A DNA stretch of 64,000 nt from a virus. Taxonomy: Duplodnaviria > Heunggongvirae > Uroviricota > Caudoviricetes. Under the pieces are notes generated by a model. The model ran no database searches, was not told where the DNA came from, and saw only the letters and a program-made list of their open reading frames with translations. Below are positions 9,644-17,017 of this stretch, one piece after another. The translations under genes were made by a program, and so were the position numbers. The stretch's first letter is position 1. Each line of letters starts with the position of its first letter. The DNA lies in IMG/VR virus record IMGVR_UViG_3300028048_000076; one strand, written 5' to 3'.

Positions 9644-9656
9644 AGGAGGATTTTTA

Positions 9657-11186
9657 ATGGAATTTGTTGCTGAATTTTTGCCTGTGATTGCAGTGCTAGT
9701 AGTTGTTTTTCTTGGTGTTATTCTTATCAAGAATATGTGGGTGAAAGCTCCACCTGATGTAGCTTTTATCATTTCAGGTCTTCGTAAGAATCCACGTACA
9801 CTGCTTGGTCAGGGTGGTTTGGTAATTCCGCTTATTGAGCGTGTTGACCAACTCTATCTTGGTCAGATTACGGTAGATATTGCTACTCGTCAGTCTGTAC
9901 CTACCAATGATTTTATCAATGTAAATGCCGATGCTGTAGCAAAGGTTGCTGTTGGTGATGAAATTGAGGATAGACTTCTTGCTGCGAAGAACTTCCTTAA
10001 TATGCCCCCTCAGAGAATTGCAGAACAGTTGAGAGATTCCCTTGAAGGTAATATGCGTGAGATTGTTGGTACGCTTTCTTTGAGAGATATTTCCACCTCT
10101 CGCGATGCTTTTTCTGAACAGGTTAAAAAGGCTGCAAGTGAAGATATGAAACGCCTTGGTATTAAGGTAATTTCTTTCAACATTCAGTCCATCACTGATG
10201 AAACAGGTCTTATCAACGACTTGGGTGCAGATAACACTGCAAAGATTAGAAAAGATGCAAGTATTGCAAAAGCTGAAGCAGACCGCGATGTAGCAATTAA
10301 ACAGGCAAGTGCAGATAAGCAGGCTAATGAAGCTAGAGTAAATGCAGAGCTTGAAATTGCTCAGAGACAGAATGAATTAGCAATTAAGAAAGCTGAACTG
10401 AAGAAACAGTCTGATATTAAAAAGGCTGAAGCAGATGCCGCCTATGAAATTCAGGCACAGGAACAGCGTAAGACGATTGAGATTGCAACTGTTAATGCAA
10501 ACATTGCAAAAGCAGAACGTGAAGCTGACCTGAAGAAGATGGAAGTAGCCGTTAAGGAACAGCAGTTGGCGGCTGAAATTCAGAAACAGGCAGATGCACA
10601 GAAGTATGAAACTGAGCAGAATGCTAGTGCAGAACTTGCTCGTAGACAGCGTGAAGCAGAAGCTGAACTTTATGAACAGCAGAAGGTTGCTGATGCTCAG
10701 AAAGCAAAAGCAGAAGCACAGAAATATGCTATGGAGCAGGAAGCTGCAGGTATTACGGCAAAAGCACAGGCAGAAGCTGATGCCATTCGTTTGAAAGGTG
10801 AAGCTGAAGCAAAGGCTGTTCAGGCAAAAGGTGAAGCGGAAGCTGTTGCTATGGATAAGAAAGCAGAAGCTATGAAGAAATATGGTCAGGCAGCTATGGC
10901 ACAGATGATGATTGAAGTTCTGCCAAAAATGGCTGAACAGATTGCTAAACCTGTTGGTTCTATTGATAATCTGACTGTATTCGGTGGCGGTACAAATGGT
11001 AGCGGTGTAACAAGTATTTCTGAAAATGTACCATTGGTTATGGCACAGACTTTTCAGGCAATGAAAGCAGCTACAGGCGTTGACCTTGCAGAAATTATGA
11101 GAGGTCAGTCAGGTACTGAAACGACTCAGAATGTTAATGTTCAGGGTACAAAAAATGTTGATGTAGCTGTTTCTAACAAGAAATAA
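9657..11186 (+). CDS. floT: flotillin (SPFH/band-7, FloT/YuaG-like)
   Basis: 509 aa. N-terminal transmembrane segment, SPFH domain, a long Ala/Glu/Lys coiled-coil repeat region, and a C-terminus KYGQAAMAQMMIEVLPKMAEQIAKPVGSIDNLTVFGGG that is co-linear with Bacillus FloT. GC content is clearly higher than in its neighbours. Confidence 0.8.
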   Translation: MEFVAEFLPVIAVLVVVFLGVILIKNMWVKAPPDVAFIISGLRKNPRTLLGQGGLVIPLIERVDQLYLGQITVDIATRQSVPTNDFINVNADAVAKVAVGDEIEDRLLAAKNFLNMPPQRIAEQLRDSLEGNMREIVGTLSLRDISTSRDAFSEQVKKAASEDMKRLGIKVISFNIQSITDETGLINDLGADNTAKIRKDASIAKAEADRDVAIKQASADKQANEARVNAELEIAQRQNELAIKKAELKKQSDIKKAEADAAYEIQAQEQRKTIEIATVNANIAKAEREADLKKMEVAVKEQQLAAEIQKQADAQKYETEQNASAELARRQREAEAELYEQQKVADAQKAKAEAQKYAMEQEAAGITAKAQAEADAIRLKGEAEAKAVQAKGEAEAVAMDKKAEAMKKYGQAAMAQMMIEVLPKMAEQIAKPVGSIDNLTVFGGGTNGSGVTSISENVPLVMAQTFQAMKAATGVDLAEIMRGQSGTETTQNVNVQGTKNVDVAVSNKK

Positions 11187-11225
11187 TAAAAAAGGAAGTA
11201 CAGGCAAAACTGTACTTCCTTTTTT

Positions 11226-11483
11226 TCATTCTCCACCACAATCGCAACCGCCACAATCAAAGCCACCAAAATCTCCACCACTGTAATCTGAATAATTATC
11301 AGATGATGTTTCTGTGTCAGTTGAGTTATCACCCTCATTATCTTTTTCAGGTACAGCGTTATATGGATAGGTATTACCTACAAACCAAGGCCCATAGAAT
11401 CCCCAATAAGGAGCACCGTACCATGCATGATAAGGAGCATGTGTAATTGGACGTTGTTTAATTAATCTTTTCTTCTTTGACAT
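11226..11483 (-). CDS. small Cys/Gly-rich protein
   Basis: 85 aa. GGAGTG ribosome-binding site. Lies 6 nt downstream of the preceding minus-strand gene. The C-terminus is CGGCDCGG. Confidence 0.35.
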   Translation of the reverse strand: MSKKKRLIKQRPITHAPYHAWYGAPYWGFYGPWFVGNTYPYNAVPEKDNEGDNSTDTETSSDNYSDYSGGDFGGFDCGGCDCGGE

Positions 11484-11489
11484 GATAAA

Positions 11490-11957
11490 TCACTCCAATT
11501 TATCTTCTGTAAAATCGTCAAATTTCTGAGAAAGCTCTTTCTTTGCATCATCAAGAGTTCTTGCATTCAATAGAACAAGTCCCATACCTTCTAAAGTCAT
11601 ATCTTGTGCAGTGGCTTGGGCTGTTGTTGCGTGTTCAATAATAGAAATGTATTTTGGTTCTTCTACTGTACCATCTCCGTGCAAACGAGAAGCTACATAA
11701 ACAACTGCATCATTTTGAGTATCTGATTTTTTGTCAATGTCTTTATACATGAAATTTTCTACAACATATAGATGAATTTTTTCATTTTCCATTTCATAGT
11801 AAATTCCACCATACATACCATAGTTTGAATTTTGGGTGAAATTGTGTAATTTATCTTTTGTAAGACGATTGTCTTTATTTTGGATGAACTGAAGTTCTTT
11901 TTCTGTATCTATATTGAATGCTTCAGTCTGCTTTGTAATAGCTATTAATCTTTTCAT
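11490..11957 (-). CDS. MKRLIA-family protein, paralog A1
   Basis: The true start is MKRLIAITK at 11957, with a GGAAGG ribosome-binding site. The ORF-track N-terminal extension runs through the divergent promoter and is rejected. Paralogous to 13635..14102. Confidence 0.55.
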   Translation of the reverse strand: MKRLIAITKQTEAFNIDTEKELQFIQNKDNRLTKDKLHNFTQNSNYGMYGGIYYEMENEKIHLYVVENFMYKDIDKKSDTQNDAVVYVASRLHGDGTVEEPKYISIIEHATTAQATAQDMTLEGMGLVLLNARTLDDAKKELSQKFDDFTEDKLE

Positions 11958-15209: not shown

Positions 15210-15220
15210 GGTAAAATAAT

Positions 15221-15595
15221 ATGTTAATGAAATTACATTTGACGTATACTGATGGCTTTGGAGATGAAAATTTTTTTCAAGGTTATAATTCTGTAAAAAA
15301 AGGTTTACCACCAGTGCCTACAATTATTAACTCAAATCAAATTATTGCAATAACACCAACGTCTTCCATTCCTGAAGATTATATGTCACAACAAATAGAA
15401 CGATATTATAGCGATATTGAGAAACGTGATTTTTGGGATACTCAAACTTATATAAAATTATCAGATGGATGTTCGTTGGGAGTTGCAGAACCATTTTGGA
15501 TGATTGAAAAAATTATTCGTGGCAAATTGGATTCATTTAAAAATCCATATTTTTCAGTAAGTAGTATTGAAACAGCACCGTATCGAGAAGATTGA
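15221..15595 (+). CDS. hypothetical protein
   Basis: 124-aa ORF. Confidence 0.45.
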   Translation: MLMKLHLTYTDGFGDENFFQGYNSVKKGLPPVPTIINSNQIIAITPTSSIPEDYMSQQIERYYSDIEKRDFWDTQTYIKLSDGCSLGVAEPFWMIEKIIRGKLDSFKNPYFSVSSIETAPYRED

Positions 15596-15775
15596 TTATA
15601 ATTTGGTGCAGTTTGAGTGATTGAGAGGTAAAGACCTCTCTTTTTTTCTCTTGCAGATTGACAATTGCAGATAAATACAGTATAATTTTGGGAAGTGAGT
15701 TTGTGGAAGATATGTAAAAAAAGTATATAATATACTTATCAATTCAAAACAAACTACTAATGTTAAAAATGGCAG

Positions 15776-16939
15776 GTGAAAACTGTGTTGATAATACCGC
15801 AAAAAGTAAAAATGAAATGGCATAATATTAATAAAAATTATTATGCAAATAGAGGTTATGTTTTTACGAAGTTGAAAGATGAATTTGAAGTTGATGTGCA
15901 AGATTTACCTAAAGGTAGCCATGTAAAAGTGGAAGTCGCTTGTGATGGTTGCGGAAAAAGATATTTTAAGGAATATAAAGCTCATGTTGTGGCAAATAGA
16001 AGAGATTTCTGTTTGAAGTGCAGAATGAATGTGAGAGCAAAAGAAACCTGTTTGGTAAAATATGGAACAGAATATGCCACTCAAAATGATAAAGTGAAAG
16101 AAAAATTTAAAAATACTTGCATCAAAAAGTGGGGAGTTGAAAATCCAAGACAGGTATTGGAAATAAAAAAAAGGAGCAGGCAGACTTGTGTTAAAAAATA
16201 TGGTACAGAACATCCTATGCAAAGTGAAACTGTAAAAAATAAAGTTAAACAAACCTGTATTGAAAAATATGGCGTTGACCATTGTTGGAAGTCTGAACAA
16301 GTTAGAAACACACAAAAACAAACTTGTCTTGAAAAATATGGATTTGAATACCCTGCACAATCTGAAGTTGTTAAACAAAAAGTAAAAAAAACATTTTTGA
16401 AACGGTATGGAACAAAAAATCCTTTTTGTTGTAATCAATTTCGTGAAAAATTTAAACAAACATGTCTTAAACGATATGGAGTTGAACATCCATCACAATT
16501 AAAAGAGAATCGTGATAAAGCAAAAAAAACAATGATTTCAAGATATGGCCATCCATTTATGGCAGGAAAAAATGGAATTATTGTTCCTGCTTCAAAGCAA
16601 CAAAAGTGTATTCAAAAAATTGTTGGTGGAGATTTGAATTATCGTGTAGGAAAATTTTTTCTTGATATTGCACTTGTAGAAGAAAAAATTGATATAGAAT
16701 ATGATGGCACAGGTCACAGATTGAGTGTTAAATTAAAAGGAATATCCGAGAAAGAATATGATGATTTAGAACAGGCAAGAGAAAACAAGTTGTTTAAGAA
16801 AGGGTGGAAGATAATTAGACTTGTTAATAAAACTACAGACATTCTTCCATCAGAAAAAGAAATAAAAAACATTATAAAAGATTGTGTTGATAGATTAAAA
16901 ACTACTGCTGAGAAAAAAATCATCATTCGATGGAGTTGA
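15776..16939 (+). CDS. putative free-standing homing-type endonuclease: tandem ~22-aa repeats plus a C-terminal PD-(D/E)XK (DUF559/Vsr-like) domain
   Basis: About 8 tandem repeats of KYG.EhP.QS..VK.K.KQTC. The C-terminal FLDIALVEEKIDIEYDGTGHR...WKIIRL resembles the DUF559 nuclease motif. The start is uncertain (GTG 15776 or ATG 15812). Confidence 0.55.
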   Translation: MKTVLIIPQKVKMKWHNINKNYYANRGYVFTKLKDEFEVDVQDLPKGSHVKVEVACDGCGKRYFKEYKAHVVANRRDFCLKCRMNVRAKETCLVKYGTEYATQNDKVKEKFKNTCIKKWGVENPRQVLEIKKRSRQTCVKKYGTEHPMQSETVKNKVKQTCIEKYGVDHCWKSEQVRNTQKQTCLEKYGFEYPAQSEVVKQKVKKTFLKRYGTKNPFCCNQFREKFKQTCLKRYGVEHPSQLKENRDKAKKTMISRYGHPFMAGKNGIIVPASKQQKCIQKIVGGDLNYRVGKFFLDIALVEEKIDIEYDGTGHRLSVKLKGISEKEYDDLEQARENKLFKKGWKIIRLVNKTTDILPSEKEIKNIIKDCVDRLKTTAEKKIIIRWS

Positions 16940-17017
16940 CATACAAATTATGTGAATAGTCGAAAACACTTAACATAAAATATATGTAAAAATTTTGATA
17001 ATTAAGGGGGAAGATTT

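Follow-up and report, generated by a model that had tools for sequence, protein, structure and literature searches.

A multi-gene island between the halves of a predicted split intein in the dnaE gene of a large rumen phage

How can an essential polymerase gene carry a 7.4-kb island of other genes in its interior, and how did that island come to be there? The question is raised by dnaE in the virus record IMGVR_UViG_3300028048_000076, from which 64 kb of a large rumen phage genome (at least 206 kb) was analysed; this whole 64-kb stretch is called the window below. The gene is interrupted by an intein whose N- and C-terminal halves (IntN and IntC) lie in two separate open reading frames (ORFs), with the island in the gap between them. 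Split inteins are workhorses of protein engineering. To our knowledge, the origin and drift of natural split inteins are known from few end states, namely fractured genes with one homing endonuclease (HE) and the fully separated halves of cyanobacteria and archaea. The window locus and about 70 relatives place all states at one DnaE site: empty, contiguous, split without a gene, split with one HE, and split by islands of 1.6 to more than 10 kb. From these comparisons we consider it likely that dnaE of this phage is a fractured gene with a split intein, that a single old split produced it, and that the gap is an old permissive site whose contents have kept changing.

The intein halves have the sequence features of a split-intein pair (feature coordinates are collected in Table 1; slashes in motifs mark splice junctions). 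The ORF at 7520-9643 matches the Pfam families PHP (1.7e-37), DNA_pol3_alpha (1e-15) and Hint/Intein_splicing, and position 1 of IntN is C608, directly after the conserved extein sequence GPGRG. This ORF ends in a stop after …GDYIVELN, and IntC has its own ribosome binding site (RBS) and a GTG start in a separate ORF (17018-17173). The Pfam Intein_splicing match in IntC covers positions 120-155. Blocks F and G read VYDLTVEGAHSYNV…FIVHN with Ser as the +1 residue (VHN/S), and after IntC the ORF continues as SGAGSLVNYALG, the DnaE sequence that normally comes next after GPGRG. Cys1, block B (TLDH in the window), the conserved blocks F and G and VHN/S are present in the window and in all island loci; six of these loci keep Cys1 and the TxxH of block B in the form T[LK]DH. 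The break aligns with the position of the insert in the contiguous intein of phage G, which is the canonical insertion point of an HE domain, and the empty-site allele of locus L110 (GPARGSGGGSLVAYALGIT; GPARG/SGGGS) is colinear with the joined exteins. Taken together, Cys1, blocks B, F and G, the separate ORFs, and the empty and contiguous alleles at the same site indicate that IntN and IntC form a canonical class-1 split intein at GPGRG/SGAGS, for which trans-splicing is predicted.

It is highly improbable that the two dnaE pieces are decaying pseudogene fragments in a phage that uses another polymerase. The first-pass annotation of this DNA had named this as a possible outcome, and it draws some support from a gene interrupted four times and from a window that covers 64 kb of the genome. 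However, both halves are long ORFs equipped with an RBS and a perfect promoter. Conservation of the intein catalytic residues and the exteins extends over more than 10 lineages (45-87% identity), the same split is found across the whole clade, and no dnaE paralogue was detected in the window.

The gap runs exactly from the stop of the IntN-bearing ORF (9643) to the GTG of the IntC ORF (17018), and the coordinates first proposed for it, 9644-17017, are therefore retained. The first-pass annotation had counted 12 genes in this interval; its own list adds up to 11, and 11 ORFs were counted here. Its gene identities hold, with a flotillin, a Ham1 protein, two A/B gene pairs and a CE4-like deacetylase; the last is recognized by PHROGs, and its score against Pfam PF01522 (19.3 bits) lies below the cut-off of 23.1. 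Nothing usable was found in Pfam or PHROGs for A, B, hyp154, hyp124 or the Cys-rich protein, and PADLOC gave no defence-system match among the island proteins. Since the same gene order occurs in independent assemblies from other samples (L067, L157, L158; L numbers denote the loci compared), an assembly artefact can be discounted. Variants at strain level, found in other samples and with A2 89% identical, have the same inverted order and the flotillin gene adjoining IntN.

A megablast search with positions 7000-21000 found no match in GenBank phages, and relatives were therefore reached through protein patterns. Scans of IMG/VR and metagenomes yielded about 70 loci with the DnaE site. These were classed by a script according to whether IntN and IntC lay in one open frame, and the gap ORFs were then inspected. 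The question raised at the outset, whether relatives have a contiguous intein, can be answered: about 22 loci do, including phage G, and L110 and L111 have no intein at the site. Other loci are split by a 97-250-nt gap with no gene, one of which holds a 68-aa HE remnant. Further loci have a gap of 0.7-1.6 kb, most with one free-standing HE of the TnsA-like PD-(D/E)XK or GIY-YIG type. Thus the earlier statement that known fractured genes carry a single free-standing HE is true of the published cases (PMC2677866) and of many viral loci at this same site. Multi-gene islands were found in L112 (1.6 kb), L010, L106 and L108 (2.4 kb), L071 (4.85 kb), L002 (5.5 kb), L105 (6.4 kb), the L031 group (7.3 kb), the window (7.4 kb), L063 (7.9 kb) and L011 (9.0 kb). 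For L012, L013 and L050 the pattern scan placed no N-half within 9-10 kb upstream, giving a separation of more than 9-10 kb; the contigs of L012 and L013 measure 416 kb and 504 kb. Most islands are without any HE. Other island genes include, in L002, one for a BspA-like repeat protein; L071 and L105 each have a methyltransferase together with a radical SAM/SPASM enzyme. Among the products encoded in more distant islands are a clamp-like and a DnaD-like protein, an amidase, GalU, a nucleotidase and HD-domain proteins, the last annotated in this analysis as OB+HD phosphohydrolases. Contents that differ so widely between relatives indicate that accessory genes have been gained and lost.

Trees were built from the exteins, from the exteins plus about 600 further residues (about 900 positions) and from the intein halves. 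In these rough neighbour-joining (NJ) trees all island loci fall in one clade, sister to the contiguous inteins of the phage G type, and the single-HE loci are found elsewhere. The first-pass annotation had described the gap as an insertion hotspot for accessory genes. The part of this claim that concerns gain, loss and variable content is borne out by the relatives; a five-gene core of the island is old, however, and no insertion mechanism was found for the gap genes. The term permissive site fits better than hotspot.

This core is seen most clearly in the six nearest relatives (L002, L010, L071, L105, L106 and L108), whose DnaE segments are 58-87% identical. In each of them the genes B(-), A(+), CE4(+), a small ORF(+) and the Cys-rich gene(+) lie upstream of IntC, and the gap of L010 consists of these five genes only. 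The Cys-rich gene is the most widely shared island gene, with homologues in the gaps of L010, L063, L012, L071 and L105. The window differs in its second A/B pair and hyp154 and in the orientation of the core, which points towards IntC in all these relatives and is inverted relative to dnaE in the window; an inverted-repeat scan, made to look for a cause of the inversion, gave only short pairs at chance level. The CE4 sequences are 67% identical in all three pairs formed by the window, L009 and L010, as against 58-87% for the extein segments, and the motifs TFDDG and HSYYH are invariant in the three-sequence alignment. This divergence lies within the extein range, which argues that the core was inherited together with dnaE. 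A and B evolve faster than CE4 (23-57% identity). The A family has 8 homologue clusters among 5.8 billion proteins, and the AlphaFold2 model of A2 (pLDDT 82) gave only weak, generic matches to cystatin, PepSY and NTF2-like folds (Z <= 5.4).

Long association with dnaE might also mean that the core is a partner of the replication module, kept beside the C-half by co-regulation. The core is present in every close relative, where it points to IntC, mostly without a strong intervening promoter, and other islands hold sliding-clamp-like, DnaD-like and HD-domain proteins. We nevertheless regard such a role as unlikely. The inversion in the window uncoupled the core from the dnaE C-half and this arrangement persists in several samples, A and B are fast-evolving, and no core gene has a replication-related domain.

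The HE of the window appears to be recent. Its likelier start is the ATG at 15812, and it ends 79 nt before IntC, on the same strand. The first-pass annotation had allowed that this ORF might lack a nuclease fold; its C-terminal domain has a Vsr-like nuclease fold. Among the candidate catalytic residues, the D of LDIAL and an E are invariant in a 45-sequence alignment, the D of IEYDG is nearly so and the next H is a consensus residue only. NUMOD gave no match in the N-terminal region, where a Zn ribbon and DUF7487 repeats are found instead. The family has 1,730 members at E <= 1e-10.

The HE had been taken as the relic of the event that split the intein, in which case the gene at 15776-16939 would descend from the HE that broke the intein and the ten other genes would have come later, between it and IntN. 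Its position is the canonical one for a fractured gene, directly upstream of IntC, on the same strand and with its own promoter, and the Vsr-like fold is that of the HE family in about half of the fractured genes (PMC2677866). Against such a descent, none of the 57 other viral loci has this HE in its gap, nor do the close metagenomic relatives sharing the split; at least 10 of the loci that lack it share the split. Within the island clade, L012 and L063 carry a different, TnsA-like/NUMOD family of HE beside the intein halves, as do most single-HE loci, and the nearest homologues of the window HE are 40-45% identical, free-standing among phage structural genes and not beside inteins. The relic explanation is therefore unlikely. 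The restriction to the window gap, the other HE family in the clade and the distant homologues point to a later invader upstream of IntC rather than to the agent of the break, and the HE is most likely, from these sequence comparisons, a late arrival at the canonical position.

In L063 (2081-4564), two TnsA-like HE genes follow IntN with a duplicated C-terminal fragment of IntN (3204-3473) between them, and a third HE lies directly upstream of IntC; such a layout looks as though HEs had acted more than once at the edges of the gap.

The island might be a mobile cassette, in which the HE cuts HE-less alleles and repair through the arms formed by intein halves and exteins copies the cargo into co-infecting phages, the split intein serving as portable flanks for gene exchange. 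In the window, L012 and L063, HEs do lie at the edge of the island next to IntN or IntC, the IntN fragment of L063 is duplicated, sub-clade gains are mostly at the island edges, and nuclease genes are reported as marking boundaries of genetic exchange between phages (PMC10448857). We consider the cassette improbable nonetheless: divergence of the core genes is similar to that of the exteins, in keeping with vertical inheritance, most islands are without an HE, and no recent transfer was seen in the form of near-identical cargo in divergent backbones. A wider form of the same idea, that the split-intein gap is a gene-exchange site for the whole clade, with IntN, IntC and extein sequences as homology arms and edge HEs starting recombination by which co-infecting large phages exchange or add cargo, seems to us quite unlikely as well; if it were true, the break would persist as a safe harbour for new genes in an essential, always-retained locus.

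Transcription signals show how the two halves of dnaE could be expressed around an old permissive gap. The exact pattern TTGACA-N17-TATAAT occurs 10 times in the 64 kb, where 0.03 occurrences are expected. Five of these belong to the dnaE locus (7458, 11976, 14133, 15658 and 18584); each is intergenic and on the + strand, and the three that lie inside the island agree with the earlier claim that it has its own promoters. An RBS (AGGAGG) lies directly behind the IntN stop, 7 nt before the ATG of the flotillin gene, and cotranscription of this gene with the N-half is therefore probable. No terminator-like site was detected in the stretch that separates the HE from IntC, so that the promoter at 15658 probably drives IntC and the dnaE C-half too. 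Strong hairpin terminators are found at 11188-11225, 12452-12478, 15623-15640 and 20469-20504, and with the promoters they mark off separate units. The implied units would be P7458 to dnaE-N/IntN and flotillin, P11976 to B1, P14133 to B2-Ham1-hyp124, P15658 to HE and IntC-dnaE-C, and two minus-strand units. On this layout the C-half seems to rely on a promoter associated with the HE, and HE-associated control elements are a feature of the same kind noted for fractured genes (PMC2677866). The late HE insertion may also have supplied this promoter to the C-half, perhaps as a need that followed the inversion of the core.

Besides the rearranged core, the window has additions of its own, flotillin on the IntN side and Ham1, hyp124 and the HE on the IntC side; none of these four gave a tblastn match in any related locus examined. 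Two units, P11976-B1-T12452 and P14133-B2-Ham1-hyp124-T15623, are moron-like in having their own promoter and terminator, and Ham1, hyp124 and flotillin vary in presence between relatives, as morons do. The moron label does not fit the conserved core well. The flotillin is about 70% identical to flotillins of Selenomonas ruminantium, the GC content is 0.39-0.43 at this gene and 0.29-0.33 in the rest of the island, and homologues occur at unrelated positions in other large phage-like contigs. These features fit a circulating host-derived accessory gene. A rule that flotillin travels with IntN was considered and rejected, as the homologues in the other contigs are not beside dnaE.

A scheme consistent with these observations is as follows. 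The N-half would be transcribed from 7458 together with flotillin, and the C-half from 15658 together with the HE. Two group I introns would be removed from the C-half RNA, a mini-intein in the PHP domain would splice in cis, and IntN and IntC would associate and ligate the two polypeptides into one DnaE. With ligation at the protein level the halves need no adjacency, and DNA in the gap could be gained, lost or rearranged without harm to the polymerase. Historically, a single split would go back to the ancestor of one large-phage clade, the phage G-like sister keeping the contiguous intein, and the gap would then have been filled differently by each lineage. The sub-clade of the window would have acquired the B, A, CE4, small ORF and Cys-rich core upstream of IntC, on the same strand and probably cotranscribed with it. 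In the window lineage the core would have been inverted and the A/B pair duplicated, and the host-like flotillin, Ham1, one ORF without a family match and the Vsr-fold HE, which would have brought its promoter, would have been gained.

Several points weigh against this interpretation. Trans-splicing, intron splicing and promoter use are all read from the sequence. The 5' junction of intron 1, placed by homology, has A and not U at position -1. A second polymerase may be encoded elsewhere in the genome, of which 64 kb was covered. The trees are simple NJ trees on query-anchored pseudo-alignments, without support values, and in one of them the intein-less, unsplit L110 (3599-3820, GPARGSGGGS) lies inside the island clade, next to L112; if that nesting is real, a single irreversible split requires a precise re-fusion or an allele replacement. 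Finally, the distribution of the HE could also reflect its loss in all the relatives and not a gain in the window.

Table 1. Predicted features of the dnaE locus and its island (positions in the window)
Feature	Coordinates	Strand	Description
Promoter, dnaE N-half	7458..7486	+	sigma-70-type, TTGACA-17-TATAAT, 12/12 matches
dnaE N-half ORF	7520..9643	+	707 aa; PHP and start of Pol III alpha domain, IntN at end
PHP mini-intein, contiguous	7958..8437	+	160 aa; SSA/CFLAG…SAHN/CLAG; Pfam Intein_splicing 154-306
IntN	9341..9640	+	100 aa; GPGRG/CFVKD…TLDH…GDYIVELN, then stop
Flotillin (SPFH)	9657..11186	+	Pfam Band_7 5.4e-23, Flot 1.5e-9
Terminator hairpin, bidirectional	11188..11225	.	16-bp stem, between flotillin and Cys-rich genes
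Tyr/Gly/Cys-rich protein	11226..11483	-	85 aa; from sequence only
A1	11490..11957	-	155 aa; clade-restricted family, N-terminus MKRLIA, 43% identical to A2
Promoter, B1	11976..12004	+	perfect match
B1	12041..12451	+	136 aa; fast-evolving, divergent from A1, 41-44% identical to B2
Terminator hairpin	12452..12478	.	between B1 and CE4-like gene
CE4-like deacetylase	12465..13172	-	PHROG polysaccharide deacetylase 2.1e-7; TFDDG and HSYYH motifs
hyp154	13174..13638	-	154 aa; N-terminus MKRLIA, no family match
A2	13635..14102	-	155 aa; 43% identical to A1
Promoter, B2-Ham1-hyp124 unit	14133..14161	+	perfect match
B2	14219..14632	+	137 aa; 57% identical to B gene at L009:7537-7944
Ham1/ITPase-family NTP pyrophosphatase	14634..15209	+	Pfam 2.7e-54
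hyp124	15221..15595	+	124 aa; no family match
Terminator	15623..15640	+	after hyp124
Promoter upstream of HE	15658..15686	+	perfect match
Free-standing HE (predicted)	15776..16939	+	Zn ribbon, ~23-aa DUF7487 repeats, C-terminal Vsr-like nuclease (LDIAL…IEYDGTGH)
IntC	17018..17131	+	38 aa; VKFKQ…VYDLTVEGAHSYNVNNFIVHN; RBS AAGGGGG 7 nt upstream
C-extein exon 1	17132..17168	+	SGAGSLVNYALG…; aligned to uninterrupted L002 and L001
Group I intron 1 (putative)	17169..17638 (about)	+	boundaries by homology; Rfam RF00028 43.6 bits, E 2e-9
C-extein exon 2	17639..18159	+	Pfam DNA_pol3_alpha 5.2e-29
Group I intron 2	18160..18645	+	Rfam 51.5 bits (gathering score 50); U at -1, terminal G
C-extein exon 3	18646..20469	+	finger, HhH (helix-hairpin-helix) and OB domains; DNA_pol3_finger 6.7e-37, HHH_6 3.3e-17
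Terminator hairpin	20469..20504	.	end of dnaE

Four predicted self-splicing elements interrupt dnaE in the window (7520-20469), two of them group I introns and the others the PHP mini-intein and the split intein. Close relatives are polymorphic for all of these except the split intein, which is fixed. At the PHP site L071 and L105 are intein-less and read SSACLAG, and L010 has a large intein (about 370 aa) that apparently bears a LAGLIDADG domain. Intron 1, whose score lies below the RF00028 gathering score of 50, is absent in L002, and intron 2 is absent in L071, L105 and L001. L010 and L071 have an intron at another site, LIFER/FLNP, that of L010 with a LAGLIDADG-like ORF by eye. At the site of intron 2, L002 and L010 have an antisense ORF of 535-537 aa; its C-terminus resembles Vsr by eye (AIEYDGP[FY]H), and Pfam gave only a weak DUF5889 match. 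The 3' tail of intron 2 in the window (18487-18645) contains a hairpin and the perfect + strand promoter at 18584-18612, about 35 nt before exon 3, which may also be transcribed on its own; this promoter is kept in L002 (9860-10000) as TTAACA-17-TATAAT. In phage G (L008, 6931-11902), seven genes (gp332-gp338, including a NUDIX hydrolase) lie between the dnaE pieces gp331 and gp339, and this 5-kb gap is at the exact position of intron 2 in the window. Possible explanations are a very large intron, trans-splicing or a plain split of the protein; Rfam gave no match at E < 0.001 for the introns of phage G and L010.

Some further observations concern the island proteins and the flanks of dnaE. The N-terminus MKRL[IV]A is common to A1, A2, the unrelated hyp154 and island proteins in L002 and L071, and is also found on an ADP-ribosyltransferase of the ART-PolyVal family (59577-60368, + strand; Pfam 31.8 bits); about the first 10 residues of the A2 model are of low confidence. 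By analogy with the capsid-targeting sequence of T4 internal proteins, MKRL[IV]A might be a packaging or injection tag, and if so the A family would be fast-evolving injected effectors. About 70 nt upstream of the ART-PolyVal gene there is a RAGATH-18 RNA (59443-59506), which scores 60 bits where the gathering score is 44.9. In L071 (4641-6556) and L105 (6992-9414), the Cys-rich protein is followed downstream by a methyltransferase-like gene and a radical SAM/SPASM enzyme, with a 105-aa ORF between the two in L105. The layout resembles that of a precursor and maturase of ribosomally synthesized and post-translationally modified peptides (RiPPs), and no such enzyme is present in the window island. 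The CE4-like gene of the close relative L147 (105-1384) matches in two pieces about 580 nt apart, possibly through an insertion or an intron. A 90-aa gene upstream of dnaE in the window (7117-7389, - strand) has an apparent homologue, by eye, inside the L105 island (7989-8306); genes seem to move between the island and its flanks. At 2 kb upstream of dnaE there is a solitary IS605-type TnpB (4325-5437; OrfB_IS605, Cas12f1-like TNB and HTH domains), with no TnpA nearby.

These loci bear on how split inteins drift apart. With all states present at one site, the proposed uncoupling pathway becomes directly testable, and natural, diverged split-intein pairs with Ser as the +1 extein residue become available for orthogonality tests. 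They also suggest that large phages can come to tolerate accessory genes inside an essential gene after protein trans-splicing has taken over.

The closest known systems are the fractured genes, among them three phage-like DnaE loci, which carry a single free-standing HE (Dassa et al. 2009, PMC2677866). The window resembles them in an essential gene split by an intein, a Vsr-like HE between the halves on the same strand, and HE-linked control elements. It differs in that the HE is not the sole gene of the gap, which holds ten further genes in six transcription units; in an HE with a Zn ribbon and DUF7487 repeats rather than NUMOD; and in a multi-gene state that is common to a whole clade, with varied contents. 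According to the fractured-gene model, uncoupling of the halves follows the fractured stage (step IV; PMC2677866), and the arrangement described here matches that predicted stage, seen as a graded series at one insertion site. A limited literature search, which is no proof of novelty, found no description of multi-gene islands between split-intein halves in phages; the jumbo phage MIJ3 has the classical arrangement with a single HNH gene. Compared with the endonuclease I-Bth0305I and its EDxHD family (PMC3239194), the window HE has another DNA-binding region, is free-standing rather than intron-encoded, and has no sequence match to the PDB entry.

The split DnaE of the cyanobacteria (Ssp, Npu) and the split PolB of Nanoarchaeum equitans are likewise polymerases encoded in two genes and reconstituted by trans-splicing. 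Their halves lie at distant, unrelated loci without an HE, whereas those of the window are 7.4 kb apart on one strand with an island and an HE between them; the insertion site in Ssp/Npu DnaE is a different one, and the host of the window intein is a phage. The closest isolated relative is dnaE of Bacillus phage G (gp329/gp331/gp339), 39.8% identical in the C-terminal part. It has an intein at the identical GPGRG/…HN/S site and its dnaE is also broken by further elements; unlike the window, its intein is contiguous (about 290 aa) and the seven genes lie between gp331 and gp339. Lastly, the gap recalls morons and hyperplastic regions in its small units with their own promoter and terminator, its varying content and its one host-like gene, flotillin. 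Unlike usual morons, these genes occupy a permissive site inside an essential gene, which protein trans-splicing would make tolerable.

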